Assembly (NCBI GenBank): GCA_965223405.1 | Contig: CBDCWO010000006.1 | Location: 2,904,364-2,968,363 of the forward strand | Length of the DNA stretch: 64,000 bases | Direction of reading: 5' to 3' | Origin: Saprospiraceae bacterium | GTDB lineage: Bacteria; Bacteroidota; Bacteroidia; Chitinophagales; Saprospiraceae | Part shown: positions 37,720 to 56,667 of the stretch, in pieces | Layout of the letters: every line of letters begins with the position of its first letter | How positions within the stretch are numbered: the first letter of the stretch is position 1 | Notes under the pieces: model-generated | Database searches by the model: none | Seen by the model: the letters and a program-made list of their open reading frames with translations, nothing else | Told to the model about the DNA's origin: nothing | Made by a program: the position numbers and the translations under genes

Positions 37720-38421
37720 TCAAATGTATCTTTCCCGCTTTTGTAAATTTATCAGAGCACCTAGGATAAAAACTACCGTTCCCACGCTTAAGAAAATCCG
37801 GCTTTTCCAAACGATTTGCTTCCAGGCCAGCTGACTGAATCCCCTGCGTGGGTCATAGGGATTTAAAAATACGTTCCAAAAAGTATCTTCCAGGAACTCA
37901 CTGAATATGGTCAATCCAACTCCGAGTATTACCATAACAACCGCCGTTGCATTACCATTTTTTATCCAGGTGGAAATCAAAAAAGCCAAACTACCCAGGA
38001 AGCAGATGGGAAACAACAATTGGATCGCTACTGAAACTGGATTTATTGGATACAACAACCAGGAACCAAGAGCAGCGAAAAGTATGAGTAAAATAAATAT
38101 TTGAGTAAATATCAGTACTAATCGAACCAGCCAAACTTTATAACGATAATCCGGAATACCAAAGTGGATTTCCAACATACGCGCATCCTCATCCCGTTGA
38201 ATCCCAAATACCACGGGATAAAAAATCAATAGAATGGCTGGAAAAAAAGTTAAAGAATAGATTGACCCAATATTGATTTCATCGTTTTCAAAAACACTTA
38301 TCACCATAAAAAATAGATAAAAAGCCAATGCGGCTACCAAAAACCAAAGAAAGCGTCCGGCAAAGATGACTTTCAAGTTATACTTGATCAAACTGCGGAT
38401 ATTTGTAATTGTATTGCGCAT
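37720..38421 (-). CDS. ABC-2-type permease-like 6-TM membrane protein, translationally coupled to the RND-ABC fusion gene
   Basis: 233-aa polytopic ORF. Its ATG overlaps the TAA of the upstream gene (TAATG at 38419-38423). Confidence 0.7.
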   Translation of the reverse strand: MRNTITNIRSLIKYNLKVIFAGRFLWFLVAALAFYLFFMVISVFENDEINIGSIYSLTFFPAILLIFYPVVFGIQRDEDARMLEIHFGIPDYRYKVWLVRLVLIFTQIFILLILFAALGSWLLYPINPVSVAIQLLFPICFLGSLAFLISTWIKNGNATAVVMVILGVGLTIFSEFLEDTFWNVFLNPYDPRRGFSQLAWKQIVWKSRIFLSVGTVVFILGALINLQKRERYI

Positions 38422-43112: not shown

Positions 43113-43431
43113 TTAGGTGTTTACTATTTCCATTGTCATTGTCATTGTCATTTGTCCATTTTCTATATGTACTTTCATTCAAAATTCCACCCCCTGCCCC
43201 CTCAAGGGTCCCTCAAGGGGGACAAAATTCTTCCATTACCATTGTGATTGCTATTGTCATTGCTATTGCCATTTGCTTATCCAATCTCCATTCATACTTT
43301 CATTCAAAATTCCACATCACATTTCCATTTGTCATCAACTTTTTCAGAAATACGGATACAATTACTATTGTCATTTATTTCAAGCAGATTTTCATTTTCA
43401 TTTCTTTATCTACTCAACATTGAATTCAATT
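43113..43431. repeat. Structured repeat spacer between the two RND genes
   Basis: Two degenerate 125-bp direct repeats each contain a hexamer tract ((cattgt)n-like at 43130-43160 and 43231-43276) and an identical 20-mer actttcattcaaaattccac (43171-43190 and 43296-43315). An imperfect 25-nt palindrome ccccctcaagggtccctcaaggggg lies at 43197-43221. Confidence 0.8.
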
Positions 43432-49159: not shown

Positions 49160-52100
49160 CTAATCCATTTTTACCAATTTAATTGCATCGGCAAAAATTG
49201 CTCTGAGTCTGGATTCATTACTTAATGTAATAGTAGCTGTATCTGCTGTAAAAACATAATCGCCAAGGGAGTTCCAACCACCCGGAGATTGGTGGGATAA
49301 TTCGATACTTGGACGGTCTATTCCATTCGCATGGGGTATCACAAATTGATAATTTCCTTTTTGACCGCGATTCCAATTGAATGAATCGTCTTTATACACA
49401 TGATAAAAGACATCATATCTTCCCGGTTCGGATATCGGAATATTCCATTTGGCTTCCTTGGAGCCATCCCCGGCTTTGATGTAGAAGGCGGATCTAATGA
49501 ATTCTCCAAAAAAGCGATCATTGGTCGTTGCCGTCCAATTGAGAGGTGCACGCCATACCATAGTACCCTGATACTTGAAATCATCGTCCACTTCCGCTTT
49601 CAACCATTTGCGAAGCCGGCTTACTTCTTCAAAATGGGTAAATTCGAAACTGGGATTTTCATTGTCAACAATGATCTCATTATCATTTACGATCACCAGG
49701 GGGTTAGCAACGATTTCCTGTTTTTCTACAGCATTGGTAACCTTAGTTTTGTTAATGACTTCAAAGGAATAGTCAATCTGGTTGGGTAGATTTCCCGAAG
49801 TAAGTGTATTAAAATGGATACCGGCCGGTTCAGTCAGTGATAAATAAAATGCTTCTTTAGTTTGCCCTGGCTCGAGATATATCAATTTTTCCTGGGTATC
49901 TCCTGGGCGAAGTTTGGATTTCACTACACCTCCCGTTGTCCCCAAGTTTGAAATCTTAAAGCGAACCCGGTTCATTTCTCGATTCCCCACCAACACCTTC
50001 TCGGCCACAGGAGTGCTAAATAGATATTGAGCCATATCGGTTTCGTTAAACCATTTGGTCATATGTTGGGATAAATCCACTCCAAATTCGGCGTAAATGT
50101 GTTTTTGGAACTCTGCAAATTTTAGATTTTTGAAACGATATTCTTGCAACAACTGGATTACATATTCTCGAAACCGGTCTGTTTTTGCAATGGCTTGAAT
50201 CATTGAAAAGAGCATCTCTCCCTTTAATTCTATAACATTGTCTATCAAAGATTGGTGTTCCGATAGATTTAGAATTTGGGCAAAGGATTTTTCCTGTAAA
50301 ACCATATTGGCCAATTCATTTTGGGTACTGCCGCTTGTCTGTCGCATCCAATCCCTGCCGCGATTGTTTTCGATTCGTAAATAAGACTCAAAGACACGAT
50401 TTAGAACTGGCCAATCTTTTGAATCCAGATTGTTACACATTTCATATAATTGACCAAATTGATAGTACGGATTTAAAGTTTCTTCTACCTGCGCCCTACC
50501 GGCATTAAAATTGGTGTTGATGTTTTTGAATCGGTAAAATTCTTCTAAGAATACATGGAGTACCTCGATTTGCAATTCCTCAGCAGTTTTATTTCGGCGG
50601 CGGTTCCACCTTTTGCGACGCTTGACGGATCCATTAAAATCCAAATTCCTGGTGTACAAGCCTTTTTCCGGTATCAATACTTGTCCGGGTTGGATTGTCT
50701 GATGAACTGAGGTCCAATTGCGATCATAGGTTTTGAATTGACCAGGAACCTCGATGATTGTAAATTTATCAAATGGGTATTTTAGCCCGGATTGCCGTTC
50801 AAAATCTCTTAACCTTTCTTCAATAATTGAAGGGAGGGTATCTCTTATATCCTGAAAGGCATTATTAAAATAGTCATGGCCATCGATGTAATAGAGTGAA
50901 AACTTCATGCTATCGGTATCCAAGGTGGTCCGTTTGTAATTTCCTATTGCTACTGACAGTTGAGGTAAACCATAGTCACGTTCAAAAAAATAAGTGTTTT
51001 CTTCCAGTTGTGTAGGATGACCTTGTGAAATCGGAATCAATCCGGGCAGAGTTTTTATGGTCAATTGGTAATTGACAAAATCCTTTCGATACCAGAATGG
51101 TGATGCATTACTATATCCGACTCCTGATTGGGGATACCATTGCGCTTCAGGTGTTAACAGTAGATATTGCGGATGGATAAATGCGTATCTACTCCCAATA
51201 TCAAATAAATAATTCTTCTTTTTTTCAGATTTAAGTTTTTCATCAATATCCAAATAGCAGGCATTTTCGTCAATTGTACCCTGATATTCTATGCGCAATT
51301 CGATTGAAGTTTCAATAGGCAAAATAGTATCAAATCGAACTATCAACAATTGTAATTTTCGCTCATATTCCAATTCCTTTGCTATTGATGAAACAGATAT
51401 GACTTTTAGTCCCGGATTTAAAGTAAAAACAAATTCGCTAGCCGCTGTCTCCGTATAACCTTTTATTCTTGAAACGGCCTTGTAATCGGACTCATTTTGT
51501 TCCAATCTAATTTCATGATCTTCAATATCAATTTGGGCATGCGAGATATAGCTATTATTCAGTGCAATCATTTCTGCCGATAAGACTTTGTGTTCCTGAT
51601 AATTCTTTAAATGCTGGTGGCCGAGGTAAAGAGCAGATCCAATTGCCAGGACACCCAACATAAAAGATGAGATATTTATTAATCTGGATTGGGGTAAACG
51701 ATTTGAAATGAGGATAGAAAAAAACATGAAACCTAAACCCAAACAAGTATACATTACCCGCAGACTCAATATCGTAGGCCAGTCTCCAAAACCGACTAAT
51801 TCCGAATGAAATAAAGGGAGATAAAAGGCCATATAATCAAAGAGGTAATTGTGGGATCCGCGTAAATAAATTAAGCTGGAAAGGATATAACCCAATAGCA
51901 GAACAAAAGTCAATGCCTGATTACGGATAACTCCCATTAAAAAGATAGACAATCCAACAATAAATGTTAACGTAGGAACAGAGATTAACAGTGGATAGTA
52001 CAAATAAGCCTGCCAATCGACGTAGGTATCCTTGGCTAGTAAATTAAAAACCAGCGCCATCAACAATGCCACCACGTTGATCAATAGAAATATGGACAAG

Positions 52101-52435
52101 ATGCTCCAAACTTTACCAAACAGATATGTGGCATTACTCATGGACCGAACATAAAAGACCTCGGTGGTGTCCTGTTTTCGGTCACGTTTTATAAATTCTG
52201 AAGACAAGAATACAGCAATAATTGCCTGTGCGACATTTAGGATAAATAGATTGGCATAAGGAAGATTTGCAGGGATTGCCCGATACACCCATTCCATATC
52301 ACCCACCTCAGAAATTTCACCCATATTGAATGCAAATAGTACAAATAGTGAGAGCACCGAGAAAATTCTAAAAAACCAACTCCGCATTAGAATTTTGCGC
52401 TCGTATTTTGCTATCGTTCTAAAAGTAAAGATCAT
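49160..52435 (-). CDS. ABC-2-type permease fused to a large M1-peptidase-like extracytoplasmic region and a C-terminal golvesin-like domain
   Basis: 1091 aa. About 280 N-terminal residues are polytopic. The central region resembles the permease/M1-aminopeptidase fusions of Bacteroidota, but there is no HExxH or GxMEN anywhere. The C-terminus GRYDVFYHVY...GGWNSLGDYVF...AIFADAIKLV fits the golvesin C-terminal pattern (tentative). Confidence 0.7.
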   Translation of the reverse strand: MIFTFRTIAKYERKILMRSWFFRIFSVLSLFVLFAFNMGEISEVGDMEWVYRAIPANLPYANLFILNVAQAIIAVFLSSEFIKRDRKQDTTEVFYVRSMSNATYLFGKVWSILSIFLLINVVALLMALVFNLLAKDTYVDWQAYLYYPLLISVPTLTFIVGLSIFLMGVIRNQALTFVLLLGYILSSLIYLRGSHNYLFDYMAFYLPLFHSELVGFGDWPTILSLRVMYTCLGLGFMFFSILISNRLPQSRLINISSFMLGVLAIGSALYLGHQHLKNYQEHKVLSAEMIALNNSYISHAQIDIEDHEIRLEQNESDYKAVSRIKGYTETAASEFVFTLNPGLKVISVSSIAKELEYERKLQLLIVRFDTILPIETSIELRIEYQGTIDENACYLDIDEKLKSEKKKNYLFDIGSRYAFIHPQYLLLTPEAQWYPQSGVGYSNASPFWYRKDFVNYQLTIKTLPGLIPISQGHPTQLEENTYFFERDYGLPQLSVAIGNYKRTTLDTDSMKFSLYYIDGHDYFNNAFQDIRDTLPSIIEERLRDFERQSGLKYPFDKFTIIEVPGQFKTYDRNWTSVHQTIQPGQVLIPEKGLYTRNLDFNGSVKRRKRWNRRRNKTAEELQIEVLHVFLEEFYRFKNINTNFNAGRAQVEETLNPYYQFGQLYEMCNNLDSKDWPVLNRVFESYLRIENNRGRDWMRQTSGSTQNELANMVLQEKSFAQILNLSEHQSLIDNVIELKGEMLFSMIQAIAKTDRFREYVIQLLQEYRFKNLKFAEFQKHIYAEFGVDLSQHMTKWFNETDMAQYLFSTPVAEKVLVGNREMNRVRFKISNLGTTGGVVKSKLRPGDTQEKLIYLEPGQTKEAFYLSLTEPAGIHFNTLTSGNLPNQIDYSFEVINKTKVTNAVEKQEIVANPLVIVNDNEIIVDNENPSFEFTHFEEVSRLRKWLKAEVDDDFKYQGTMVWRAPLNWTATTNDRFFGEFIRSAFYIKAGDGSKEAKWNIPISEPGRYDVFYHVYKDDSFNWNRGQKGNYQFVIPHANGIDRPSIELSHQSPGGWNSLGDYVFTADTATITLSNESRLRAIFADAIKLVKMD

Positions 52436-53551: not shown

Positions 53552-54331
53552 TCAATTTTTTCTAATACCCAATAGATTGACCACACAGTTTTCCATATTA
53601 CCTACGGTAAACGCAAATTCCTGCTTTATTTTAGTGCCATCGGAGTAGCTGGCGGGACTCCAATTGGGCATGCAACGAATTGCGTTTAATAATAAGGTAT
53701 CGATTTTTTCATCCTTAAAAGGCCAAAAAATATGCGCATTAACGACTTGTCCTAGATTATCAATGGTAAATTTTACGGTAGCTAAGTCGAGATTCTGAAA
53801 GGTACTATCCGGAATTTGACTTAAGGCGTTTTCCTTCAGATAGTGTCTCAGCTGTTGTACACCACCGGGATATTTTGCATCACTTTGGGGAAGTACGGCC
53901 AGTTTAAAATCAATGACTTTGATTTCATTATGACTTAAAGTGTTATCAGGAATGTATTGAACCACAACGGCTATATCAGTTCCTGAGTCGGCCACGGTGA
54001 TCAGATCTTTTTGTTTCTGACTGAGGGTATCGTTTTTACTCCTGGCCGTTTTGGTCTGGCCTCGATAGAGTGTTATTATCTCTACCGAAATATATTCTTT
54101 GATCCAGGAAGATTGATATTTCTCATTCAGATCAATTAGGGTTTGTGCTGTTTTGAGTTCATCCTTTGTAATCGAAAAATACGGATAGATCGGATTGATT
54201 TCAAAATGAAGTTCATTGCTAAATCGCTCTTGGGATATACTAAAATGAGGGAAAGAGAGCCACACAAATATCACAGTTACAAAGAGATGTTTGATCAATT
54301 TAGCAACAAATTCAGGCATATCGAGGTTCAA
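53552..54331 (-). CDS. Membrane-anchored protein with TonB-C-terminal-like domain
   Basis: 259 aa with an N-terminal TM or signal sequence. The C-terminal KYPGGVQQLRHYLKEN...ATVKFTIDNLGQVVNAHI...NAIRCMPNWSPASYSDGTKIKQEFAF fits the TonB_C fold pattern. Confidence 0.6.
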   Translation of the reverse strand: MNLDMPEFVAKLIKHLFVTVIFVWLSFPHFSISQERFSNELHFEINPIYPYFSITKDELKTAQTLIDLNEKYQSSWIKEYISVEIITLYRGQTKTARSKNDTLSQKQKDLITVADSGTDIAVVVQYIPDNTLSHNEIKVIDFKLAVLPQSDAKYPGGVQQLRHYLKENALSQIPDSTFQNLDLATVKFTIDNLGQVVNAHIFWPFKDEKIDTLLLNAIRCMPNWSPASYSDGTKIKQEFAFTVGNMENCVVNLLGIRKN

Positions 54332-54515: not shown

Positions 54516-55502
54516 ATGACTGCATCAAAAAATATATTTCATTCAGGTATTTTTCTTGTGAACTTGGTTATAGAAAAACAAATTAAATCAGCATACCAGA
54601 AACTTGGATTATTGGTGGTCTTATTCATAATTCCCTTCGCAGCAATTAGCTCATCGGATAAACTGGTTGATGAAAAACGTACCATGGTAGCCATGAGAAC
54701 CATCGGGCATCAGGTATTACTTAGTATCGGAGATAGCGACTCTCGGATCATGCCTATTGAAAAGACAGATGGATATTTTAAAATTCCTTTTGGAGTTGAA
54801 TTTGGATTTGATCCAGGAGATATTGTTTCAATCATTGACAGTATAATGAGAGATACAAAATTTGCATCCCATGTATTAGTCGAAGTAGGACAATGTGACT
54901 CTAATGAGATCGTACATAGTTTTGAAATTAAAAATGAAGGAAACTCCAGTAAGATTGCTTGTATCGGGAGAAAATTGCCAAAGGACTGTTATAGTCTTTT
55001 TGTTACTATTATAGACAGCAGTGGATCTGGAAATCAGAGTCCTGATAAATTATCATCTAGTGGTTTGTCCATAATTTCATCCAAGTTCAAAGAATCAAAA
55101 CTTTTTCAATCTGCATTCTTGTTGACCCCTTTGATTCTACTACTGGGTTTTTTAGGTTATTTTATCAATAAGAAAAATGAGGTTAGCAAAGATCCAAATC
55201 TGATACTAATCGGTTCTTCCGAGTTTGATACGCGGAATATGTCCCTTTCATATCAAGATAAAAGGGTTGAGTTGTCATACAAAGAAGCACAACTACTTTC
55301 CTTACTTCACACTTCTGCAAATACACCTATCGCACGCGAAGTGTTGCTCCAAAGGGTTTGGGGTGATGAAGGTGGTTATGTAGGAAGGACGCTAGATGTC
55401 TTTATTTCCAAATTACGTAAAAAACTGGAGGCAGATGCCAGTGTGAAAATTGTAAATATCAGAGGGGTTGGTTATAAACTGGTCATGAAGGCTACGAAGT
55501 AA
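54516..55502 (+). CDS. Membrane-anchored one-component regulator with C-terminal OmpR/PhoB-type winged-helix DNA-binding domain
   Basis: 328 aa. TM1 is about aa 30-45, followed by a non-cytoplasmic domain of about 150 aa, then TM2 LFQSAFLLTPLILLLGFLGYFI. The trans_reg_C pattern is ELSYKEAQLLSLLHTSANTPIAREVLLQRVWG...TLDVFISKLRKKL...IVNIRGVGYKL. There is no receiver domain. Confidence 0.75.
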   Translation: MTASKNIFHSGIFLVNLVIEKQIKSAYQKLGLLVVLFIIPFAAISSSDKLVDEKRTMVAMRTIGHQVLLSIGDSDSRIMPIEKTDGYFKIPFGVEFGFDPGDIVSIIDSIMRDTKFASHVLVEVGQCDSNEIVHSFEIKNEGNSSKIACIGRKLPKDCYSLFVTIIDSSGSGNQSPDKLSSSGLSIISSKFKESKLFQSAFLLTPLILLLGFLGYFINKKNEVSKDPNLILIGSSEFDTRNMSLSYQDKRVELSYKEAQLLSLLHTSANTPIAREVLLQRVWGDEGGYVGRTLDVFISKLRKKLEADASVKIVNIRGVGYKLVMKATK

Positions 55503-55711: not shown

Positions 55712-56667
55712 TTAATTAACCCAAGTTGCGAACTATAGATTGATAGACCTAAAAAAGGTGTAAGCTAACACAAAAAGGAATATTTTGATCAAAAAGCCTT
55801 GGGGCGTGACTGCATGGATTTTAGCAGGCATCATTTGAGCTATTTCACTAAAAGTGGTTTCAATACGTTTTCTTTTATTTTCTATTAAATAATCTGTATA
55901 GGGTTTATGTTGTCTTTTGAGGTTGGATTTTCTTTGTACCAGTAAATGAATTTGGTCGCATTCCATCAACAAATCTTCGTACTGATAATCGTTGTAAATA
56001 GCATCTGCATACAAGGTGCTATCAACAGGTAAATCCAAATTCATAGATTTAAAAGCGGTTATGTCGGAGAAAGAACCAGCCGCAATATAATAGTCCACTG
56101 GTATTCCATTTGCATCCACTACCAATTGGACTTTAAAACCATAAAAATACTCCCTTTTAGAAACACATTTGCCACGATAAGCTTTGTTTTTCAATAACTT
56201 ACAGTTTGGGATTCGAATGTTGTGACACACTTTAACCGGAAATGAATCAATGATGTATTCACTACTTATATTTAGATTTTTGATCCTTTGTCCAAGACCT
56301 CGAAATAGACTCCATAATAAAAATTCTAATCCATGAAGTCTTCTATTAAATCCGCTTTTATCAATAAATACAACTCCATGATGTGACCTCATATAACCTC
56401 TGGCTTTGACCATGTTGCATCCAAAATATCTGGATGCTATAATTGCGGTTGTTAAAATTTCAGCATCAGTAGTTTTTCTTAATGATTCATCTTTTTTTCT
56501 TGAAATCTTGACAAAATCATCAATAAAGCAATAAATTGTAATTACATAATTTTCCATAATGGGTGTAGATTTTGGTGGGATGAGACCTCCTTAATTTACA
56601 CCATTATGGATTCTTTAGCAATATGTATTATCATTTATTTTAATACGTCGCAACTTGGGTTAATTAA
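55712..56667 (-). mobile_element. IS982-family insertion sequence, copy B (956 bp)
   Basis: It has the same 20-bp TIRs as copy A and is flanked by a 3-bp direct repeat TTA (55709-55711 and 56668-56670). Confidence 0.85.
55733..56557 (-). CDS. IS982-family DDE transposase
   Basis: The 274-aa product is identical to that of 29007-29831. Confidence 0.85.
   Translation of the reverse strand: MENYVITIYCFIDDFVKISRKKDESLRKTTDAEILTTAIIASRYFGCNMVKARGYMRSHHGVVFIDKSGFNRRLHGLEFLLWSLFRGLGQRIKNLNISSEYIIDSFPVKVCHNIRIPNCKLLKNKAYRGKCVSKREYFYGFKVQLVVDANGIPVDYYIAAGSFSDITAFKSMNLDLPVDSTLYADAIYNDYQYEDLLMECDQIHLLVQRKSNLKRQHKPYTDYLIENKRKRIETTFSEIAQMMPAKIHAVTPQGFLIKIFLFVLAYTFFRSINL

Follow-up and report, generated by a model that had tools for sequence, protein, structure and literature searches.

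Within a 64,000-nucleotide (nt) stretch of the genome of a Saprospiraceae bacterium (phylum Bacteroidota; contig CBDCWO010000006.1, positions 2,904,364 to 2,968,363; this whole stretch is "the window" in what follows) lies a gene for a 1091-amino-acid (aa) protein that is, very probably, a NosY-like permease of the ABC-2 type (ABC, ATP-binding cassette) carrying in the periplasm a catalytically dead M1 aminopeptidase fold and, beyond it, a module resembling carbohydrate-binding modules (CBMs). The gene is part of a seven-gene cassette, of which the first six genes are conserved in Saprospiraceae, Prolixibacteraceae and more distant uncultured relatives, and which also encodes permeases of the resistance-nodulation-division (RND) type. 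What this amounts to is the recruitment of an M1 aminopeptidase fold as an extracytoplasmic module of an ABC transporter after an ancient loss of its metal site, and its retention by selection in hundreds of lineages.

Architecture and conservation of the fusion protein

An earlier note on this DNA, made from the letters and their translations, had read the open reading frame as a 1091-aa product that starts as a polytopic ABC-2 permease and continues into ~800 aa of soluble sequence, M1-peptidase-like at first and golvesin-like at its C-end. That outline stands (coordinates of all features are collected in Table 1). The membrane domain has the elements of a type V ABC-2 core: an N-terminal interface helix, six membrane helices, and a re-entrant periplasmic loop (residues 194-218, from secondary structure and hydropathy) between helices 5 and 6. 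A seventh helix (251-272) is prolonged as a stalk up to residue 296 in the AlphaFold2 secondary structure and by hydropathy. The counts of Lys and Arg fit the positive-inside rule with the N-terminus in, which places residues ~297-1091 in the periplasm. NosY is the closest solved structure for this domain and PmtD the second-best. The Pfam model ABC2_membrane_2 matches residues 35-186 (E 1.9e-4) at 21.2 bits, below its gathering threshold of 27.2; precomputed PF12679 matches are present on some of the homologues.

The evidence for an M1 fold in the ectodomain comes from structure prediction and from profiles, and the two agree. The AlphaFold2 model (built from a 52-sequence alignment; mean pLDDT, the predicted local distance difference test, 80.2; pTM, the predicted template modeling score, 0.74) has the N-terminal β domain and the thermolysin-like domain of the M1 enzymes, and its 50 best Foldseek matches in the PDB are all M1 aminopeptidases (E ~4e-16 over ~620-640 columns), IRAP, ERAP1/2, tricorn factor F3 and Legionella APA among them. 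Domain I bears the conserved motifs LNP, YxG, LLTPExxWYP (which contains E430) and SQG; domain II bears a basic loop (600-617) and a β-hairpin (637-654) that is an insertion relative to E. coli PepN. The helical domain IV has no equivalent in the model, in keeping with the ~620-640 columns that Foldseek aligns with four-domain M1 enzymes. At the level of sequence the signal emerges with the family profile: a single-sequence phmmer search of the PDB returned noise only, while the profile of 141 representatives (alignment A3) matches over 20 different M1 chains, with E values from 1e-5 to 5e-3. Pfam Peptidase_M1 (PF01433) is sub-threshold (residues 712-795, E 5.9e-4, 19.9 bits against 27.7), its match covering profile positions 134-218 only, and NCBIfam has no model for the protein. 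When the full-length family profile was aligned by hhalign with PepN alone, only the Y-x-K-G region was aligned; the ectodomain profile, aligned with PepN together with a genuine Bacteroidota M1 enzyme (from L088, a metagenomic locus to which we return below), gives a local probability of 93.9% (E 1.6e-7, 411 columns) over residues 299-808 of the protein and 15-452 of PepN, and 97.3% in global mode.

The C-terminal module is recognized more directly: Pfam Golvesin_C (PF25275) matches residues 966-1088 at 50.4 bits (E 3.1e-13), above its cutoff of 31.6, and the predicted fold is a β-sandwich. Conservation sets the start of the domain at about residue 919 (strand IIVDNENPSF), and an insertion of ~30 aa (936-965) is modeled with low pLDDT. 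In the PDB, the family profile finds the C-terminal module of the Paenibacillus xanthan lyase 6f2p (E 7.9e-14). (A technical note: the label CBM84, at one time considered for this module, was dropped; the name is that of a module of the GH9 xanthanase PspXan9, and not of the xanthan lyase 6f2p.)

Is such an assemblage of domains merely the product of a frameshift or an accidental gene fusion? That reading fails, since more than 250 full-length homologues have the fusion intact, and full-length homologues are retained down to 27% identity. A word-indexed search scored 8000 candidates and yielded 1503 clusters with E≤0.001, of which the 120 best listed are mostly full-length; an exhaustive search found, for E≤1e-3, 2922 representatives at the 50% identity level, 929 of which reach E≤1e-30. 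The architecture is the same across the best 150 of those 2922 representatives, most of which are full-length while the remainder appear truncated. At least 541 species genomes hold a relative; carriers that can be cultured include Draconibacterium orientale, Mariniphaga, Maribellus and Flavilitoribacter nigricans. The membrane domain with its periplasmic loop (where S211 never varies), domains I-III and the CBM all contain positions that at least 90% of representatives share (E546, Y553, E562, P583, E590, K738, N830 and N882 among them), and this, together with full-length conservation, indicates that the whole ectodomain is under selection.

Family members go by a variety of names in the sources: "hypothetical", "xanthan lyase", "golvesin C-terminal-like domain-containing protein", "multi-copper enzyme maturation permease". 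The earlier note had spoken of Bacteroidota proteins of this layout as annotated ABC permease/M1 aminopeptidase fusions; none of the source names seen in this family says "M1 aminopeptidase", although a separate family that combines an ABC-2 permease with a zinc-dependent M1 peptidase does exist (TC 3.A.1.145; PMC3924187). The name "xanthan lyase", given to homologues P0069 and P0116 in NCBI and UniRef, is a misannotation, because it has apparently been transferred from the Golvesin_C-like C-terminal module of Paenibacillus/Bacillus xanthan lyases.

The zinc site

A regular-expression scan of all 1091 residues finds neither HExxH nor HxxEH nor GxMEN, and the M1 signature HExxH-(x18)-E and the catalytic Tyr are likewise missing. 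The ectodomain hhalign alignment specifies what has taken their places (residue numbers of the motif equivalents were confirmed by translation). The zinc ligands and catalytic Glu of PepN, H297, E298 and H301, correspond to I623, E624 and H627, and W303 corresponds to F629; the third ligand, E320, corresponds to G661; the catalytic Tyr, Y381, is replaced by E736, while K383 and G384 of the same Y-x-K-G motif are retained as K738 and G739. PepN E121 aligns next to E430. A manual mapping, which had put GAMEN at KTYDR and the first His at H627, is superseded by this alignment. The earlier note's placements of the motifs fared unequally: GxMEN, put at FTIIEVPGQFKTY (557-569), has its true equivalent just downstream, in SVHQT (576-580), so that the guess fell ~7 residues too far upstream; HExxH, put at EVLHVFLEEFYRF (624-636), covered four of the five equivalent residues of I623-H627 and left I623 outside.

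The family as a whole tells the same story. Not one of 258 full-length members carries His in the two HExxH-equivalent columns at once, and 132 of the 258 have no His at all in residues 596-690. Among the 141 representatives, column 623 is A, V or I, column 624 is R, N, D or E, column 627 is K, R or N, and column 736 is K, R or Q; the column equivalent to E320 is Pro in 117. The Glu of GxMEN is kept in 99/141 (it is Gln, Q579, in the protein analyzed here) and the domain I Glu (E430) in 126/141. Four of 149 representatives retain an intact GxMEN (GSMEN, GAMEN, GNMEN, GDMEN) in the homologous column (P0139, P0165, P0266 and P0245; alignment A2, columns ~612-619), and all four are without HExxH. 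These relics imply that the family descends from a true M1 enzyme.

Two conclusions follow. 1) With zinc site, catalytic Glu and catalytic Tyr all replaced, activity as a zinc aminopeptidase is precluded and the protein is a pseudo-enzyme, as the earlier note had supposed, and the alignment reveals no shifted but intact zinc site that might have been overlooked. 2) Since not one of the 258 relatives has the two His residues together, the loss is ancient and family-wide. The thought that it might be specific to a lineage, raised in the same note as something to check, is not upheld: the loss holds across hundreds of clusters at 50% identity.

That the M1-like module might nevertheless be a hydrolase with a non-canonical site, built for example around the conserved E562, E590, E546 or K738, is nearly excluded. 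In its favor, domain II has several acidic residues shared by at least 90% of representatives, and the Glu of GxMEN is present in 70% of them; against it, neither a His nor a Cys is conserved in the catalytic domain, both the general-base Glu and the Tyr of the transition state have been replaced, and the position of the third ligand is Pro in most members.

The ABC/RND cassette

The ATPase that adjoins the permease gene has its motifs intact: Walker A, the signature, Walker B-Glu and H-loop of this first nucleotide-binding domain (NBD1) are canonical. The nearest NCBIfam models are DrrA/GldA-like, and score below their cutoffs. On the other side of the gene follow an outer-membrane factor (OMF), a periplasmic adaptor or membrane fusion protein (MFP) whose N-terminus suggests a putative lipoprotein signal (LLAC), an RND permease (RND1), and a second RND permease fused to six transmembrane helices (6TM) and a second nucleotide-binding domain (RND2::6TM::NBD2). 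For both RND proteins the nearest models are RND_permease_2, MdtC and MdtB, with scores below their cutoffs. An ATPase partner and an RND operon were already remarked on in the earlier note; the operon turns out to be more unusual still, by virtue of its RND::ATPase fusion and what is apparently a second ABC-2 permease.

The AlphaFold2 model of the C-terminal 538 aa of the RND2 fusion (pLDDT 79.5) comprises two helices, an isolated strand, four helices and then the NBD; the isolated strand (IKVQNLVKIY) reads like the first strand of NBD2, parted from the remainder of that domain by the four helices. NosF is among the closest structures to NBD2, which also resembles TM_1403 and is 42% identical to NBD1 over the full length. 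An RND::ATPase fusion is found at the same position in ~60 loci. Databases hold it mostly as fragments, some entered under "efflux RND transporter permease subunit, partial" and others under "ABC-type multidrug transport system ATPase subunit".

At its stop, the RND::ATPase gene is overlapped by 1 nt by a gene for a 233-aa protein with about six helices by hydropathy and no match in Pfam or NCBIfam. Its hhalign similarity to the membrane domain of the fusion protein is weak (E 4.7e-4, 171 columns). A homologue stands directly after the fusion in locus L087 (56% identity) and in L088, so that the small gene is present wherever DNA beyond the fusion was read, namely in the window and these two loci. 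This protein is probably the partner of NBD2, a divergent permease of the ABC-2 kind.

Synteny was assessed by phmmer comparison of the window's proteins with the open reading frames of ~80 fetched loci (~18 from Saprospiraceae, ~62 from Prolixibacteraceae). The gene order NBD1, permease/pseudo-peptidase, OMF, MFP, RND1, RND2::NBD2 is fixed in every locus with enough flanking DNA, and is also found around members only 27% and 34% identical to the protein analyzed here, and in L088. Genes beyond the seven vary from locus to locus. Here, then, is an unstudied efflux cassette, widespread in the Bacteroidota and strictly conserved, with, it seems, two NosFY-like ABC modules, two RND permeases (one of them fused to an ATPase), an adaptor and an outer-membrane channel.

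Table 1. The cassette in the window, with the domains and motif equivalents of the fusion protein (positions are those of the window)
Feature	Coordinates	Strand	Evidence or remark
NBD1, cognate ABC ATPase, 301 aa	52456..53361	-	Pfam ABC_tran E 3.6e-33; 20 nt upstream of the fusion gene
ABC-2 permease + M1-like pseudo-peptidase + Golvesin_C fusion gene	49160..52435	-	open reading frame, ATG start, 1091 aa
Membrane domain, aa 1-296	51548..52435	-	amphipathic N-terminal helix, six-helix ABC-2 (type V) core, seventh helix
M1 domain I (N-terminal β domain), aa 299-520	50876..51541	-	hhalign to PepN 15-~200; profile match to 6a8z residues 53-141; conservation
M1 domain II (thermolysin-like, without catalytic site), aa 521-802	50030..50875	-	
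GxMEN equivalent S576-V-H-Q-T580 (PepN GAMEN 261-265)	50696..50710	-	hhalign
HExxH equivalent I623-E-V-L-H627	50555..50569	-	hhalign
Third zinc ligand equivalent G661 (PepN E320)	50453..50455	-	hhalign
Y-x-K-G equivalent E736-L-K-G739	50219..50230	-	HMMER and hhalign alignments, conservation
M1 domain III equivalent, β-sandwich, aa 803-918	49682..50029	-	AlphaFold2 secondary structure
Golvesin_C / CBM6-35-36-like β-sandwich, aa 919-1091	49163..49681	-	
OMF, TolC-like, 503 aa	47638..49149	-	Pfam OEP E 5.8e-44; synteny; 10 nt downstream of the fusion gene
MFP (periplasmic adaptor), 351 aa	46548..47603	-	TIGR01730 RND_mfp 201 bits, above cutoff; Pfam HlyD_D23; synteny
RND1 permease, 1039 aa	43432..46551	-	ACR_tran E 2.5e-207; RND_permease_2 / MdtC-like below cutoffs
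RND2::6TM::NBD2, 1563 aa	38421..43112	-	Pfam ACR_tran (4-1022) + ABC_tran; synteny
Small permease candidate, 233 aa, ~six helices (hydropathy)	37720..38421	-	1-nt overlap with the stop of the RND::ATPase gene

The genes of the operon are closely packed, with junctions of 0-34 nt, except for a non-coding gap of 319 nt (43113-43431) between RND1 and the RND::ATPase gene. The gap is rich in short repeats (ATGACAAT/AGCAAT-like), contains a G+C-rich palindrome (ccccttgagggacccttgaggggg), matches no Rfam family, and is absent in many Prolixibacteraceae loci, where the genes overlap. Nothing informative came from promoter/terminator and Rfam scans of the operon; the only Rfam matches in the window are two tRNA genes (RF00005; 30536-30607 and 30686-30756, plus strand, 69 and 50 bits).

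Immediately 5' of the NBD1 gene and on the same strand (53552-54331, minus) lies a gene whose 259-aa product has a single hydrophobic segment at its N-terminal end and matches nothing in Pfam or NCBIfam. Beyond it, and divergently oriented (54516-55502, plus), is a gene for a 328-aa protein in which hydrophobic segments are followed by a C-terminal winged helix of the OmpR/PhoB type (Trans_reg_C, E 6.9e-19); by resemblance it is a ToxR-like membrane-bound regulator, and it is not conserved beside the cassette in other loci. A DDE transposase gene (55733-56557, minus; DDE_Tnp_1_3, E 5.7e-20) lies ~2.4 kb upstream of the cassette in a stretch with a GC content of 0.34. An initial scan for true M1 enzymes in the ~1.8 Mb of fetched loci gave none; a genuine M1 aminopeptidase of 919 aa (GAMEN at 303, HELFH at 336, a HEAT_2 domain) is encoded in L088 (14180-16939, plus), ~1 kb past the last cassette gene. 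This is a single metagenomic locus, and the proximity is probably coincidental.

A proposed role for the ectodomain, and its known counterparts

What might a transporter do with a peptidase that cannot cut? The explanation that we favor, and to which we give about as much credence as doubt, is that NBD1 and the fusion protein form an ATP-driven NosFY-like module, the periplasmic ectodomain of which binds a ligand of the envelope and acts together with the RND pump encoded beside it. A competent ATPase next door, an ectodomain under purifying selection, and a synteny invariant in ~80 loci speak for it. There are also precedents: NosFY drives NosD, FtsEX drives degenerate LytM partners, and RND permeases form MdtB2C heterotrimers. 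The NosFY module is reported to drive its periplasmic partner with no classical substrate being translocated.

The mechanism that goes with this explanation is offered more tentatively, with doubt on the heavier side. Two copies of the fusion protein would pair with an NBD1 dimer; binding and hydrolysis of ATP would shift the membrane helices, the conserved periplasmic loop 194-218 and the stalk, and the ectodomain would be repositioned, by analogy with the action of NosFY on NosD and of FtsEX on its periplasmic partners. The former peptidase groove (with E430 and, in most relatives, the Glu of GxMEN) and the lectin-like module would then capture or dock the ligand; the ectodomain may be, as the earlier note put it, a binding or plug domain. 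The ligand would be a peptide- and/or glycan-bearing molecule of the envelope, and, once captured, would be passed to, or would gate, the heteromeric pump of RND, MFP and OMF proteins encoded alongside, which would carry it out through the outer membrane. Modules related to the one at the C-end are known from proteins that handle glycans: CBMs of xanthanases bind xanthan (PMC10049358), the CBM6-35-36-like_2 group occurs in lectins, and xanthan lyase and golvesin are members of the Golvesin_C group (PMC9166713).

Several considerations weigh against this explanation. Contact of the ectodomain with the RND, MFP and OMF proteins is suggested by synteny, which is not proof of a complex. The membrane domain is joined to the ectodomain by a single helix, and rigid transmission of force through it is not guaranteed; the inter-domain geometry of a single-chain AlphaFold2 model is itself uncertain. 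The replacement of the GxMEN Glu by Gln (Q579) in this very protein weakens the idea that the groove recognizes amines. Finally, the Pfam scores of both the ABC-2 and the M1 domain lie under their gathering thresholds.

A bolder version would make all seven genes a single hard-wired hybrid efflux machine that runs on ATP as well as on the proton-motive force; we think it doubtful. Its core would be a heteromeric RND trimer with covalently attached ABC ATPases, two RND2::NBD2 protomers contributing one NBD dimer (by analogy with MdtB2C). Another ABC-2 module, the second, would be docked to the trimer, and in it the dead-aminopeptidase/lectin ectodomain would be the periplasmic element for substrate capture or gating. 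If the parts do make one machine, the textbook split between ATP-driven and proton-driven tripartite pumps would be challenged, and a tractable system for studying their coupling would be at hand.

One alternative dispenses with physical coupling altogether. NBD1 and the fusion protein might be a self-sufficient ABC-2 exporter of a lipophilic or peptide substrate, taken from the cytoplasm or the inner leaflet, with the ectodomain as exit chamber or "basket" and the RND pump clearing the periplasm in a second step. ABC-2 systems typically do export, PmtD, the second-best structural match of the membrane domain, is a peptide exporter with a "basket domain", and co-transcription would be enough to secure functional cooperation. 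Conversely, the seven-gene order and the covalent RND::NBD fusion hold down to 27% identity, which argues for tighter integration, and selection on a complete M1 fold plus CBM is left unexplained; we consider such an exporter unlikely. It is also unlikely, in our judgment, that the ectodomain is a passive anchor or spacer, bound to an envelope polymer (peptidoglycan, capsular or exopolysaccharide) by means of its CBM and dead groove so as to position the pump or measure envelope spacing, and not handling the transported substrate at all. The placement of a CBM35/Golvesin_C-type module at the distal end and the uncapping of the M1 groove by loss of domain IV would suit such a role, but a pure tether needs neither a dedicated and catalytically intact ATPase nor a highly conserved periplasmic loop with an invariant S211.

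The resemblance to NosDFY can be carried further, to an assembly or maturation factor whose ATPase cycle switches the ectodomain between partners, so as to load, build or mend some component of the periplasm or outer membrane (the OMF/MFP channel, say, or a glycoconjugate of the surface), with no role in steady-state efflux. Among solved structures, NosY and NosF do come closest to the membrane domain and to the paralogous NBD2, respectively; we nevertheless find this quite improbable, since the cassette conserves nothing that looks like a cargo or chaperone gene, the genes beyond the seven being variable.

How do these proteins compare with what has been described? Literature searches on ABC permease/M1 fusions, on Peptidase_M1 with ABC2_membrane, and on RND-ABC fusions returned nothing relevant: no study of this family or cassette, no transporter with an M1 pseudo-peptidase as receptor, and no ABC-RND chimera. 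We are aware of no system, among those described, in which two ABC-2 modules are added, and of none in which an ABC ATPase is fused to an RND permease. MdtABC-type pumps resemble the cassette in encoding OMF, MFP and RND proteins in one operon, with two RND paralogues (those of the cassette being nearest to MdtB/MdtC), and a heteromeric RND assembly may be expected here as well. MacAB-TolC is an ABC pump that depends on an MFP, but MacB has the type VII fold, unlike the type V fold of the protein described here.

Among ABC-2 systems, PmtCD (6xjh) and NosDFY (7o0y) offer comparisons. With NosDFY the module shares a NosY-like membrane domain and a NosF-like NBD; the periplasmic partners differ, NosD being a separate β-helix protein that serves N2O reductase maturation, while the partner here is fused, M1-like and surrounded by efflux genes. 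Compared with other modules of the Golvesin_C / CBM6-35-36-like_2 kind (the C-terminus of 6f2p, MiXBM 7ehg, the Bacteroides Cbeg lectins), this one sits on a transporter and not on a glycan-active enzyme, and has an insertion of ~30 residues.

With the M1 aminopeptidases (PepN, ERAP1, IRAP, F3, LTA4H, the D. radiodurans enzyme 6a8z) the ectodomain has in common the fold of domains I-III and a detectable sequence homology, and it retains the K-G of Y-x-K-G, the domain I Glu and, in relatives, the Glu of GxMEN. Unlike them, it is without HExxH, the Glu that is the third ligand, the catalytic Tyr, GxMEN and domain IV, is tethered to the membrane in the periplasm, and has the hairpin insertion 637-654. 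TAF2 (subunit 2 of TFIID) is also a non-catalytic M1 homologue; as a eukaryotic nuclear scaffold it belongs to an unrelated context, and the likeness is one of principle only.

The nearest described kind is TC family 3.A.1.145, a member of which from M. xanthus, Q1D520, is a functionally uncharacterised protein of 1200 aa and 13 helices that combines an ABC-2 permease with a zinc-dependent M1 peptidase (PMC3924187). In both, an ABC-2 domain at the N-terminus, odd in its number of helices, is followed by a large hydrophilic C-terminal Peptidase-M1 domain. By description, the two are set apart by 7 helices against 13, by the absence of a zinc site as opposed to a zinc peptidase, by the added Golvesin_C module, and by the obligate RND linkage. 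Peptidase-fused ABC-2 permeases are thus already known; what is new here is the ancient pseudo-enzyme status of the peptidase, and the strictly conserved hybrid ABC/RND cassette to which it belongs.

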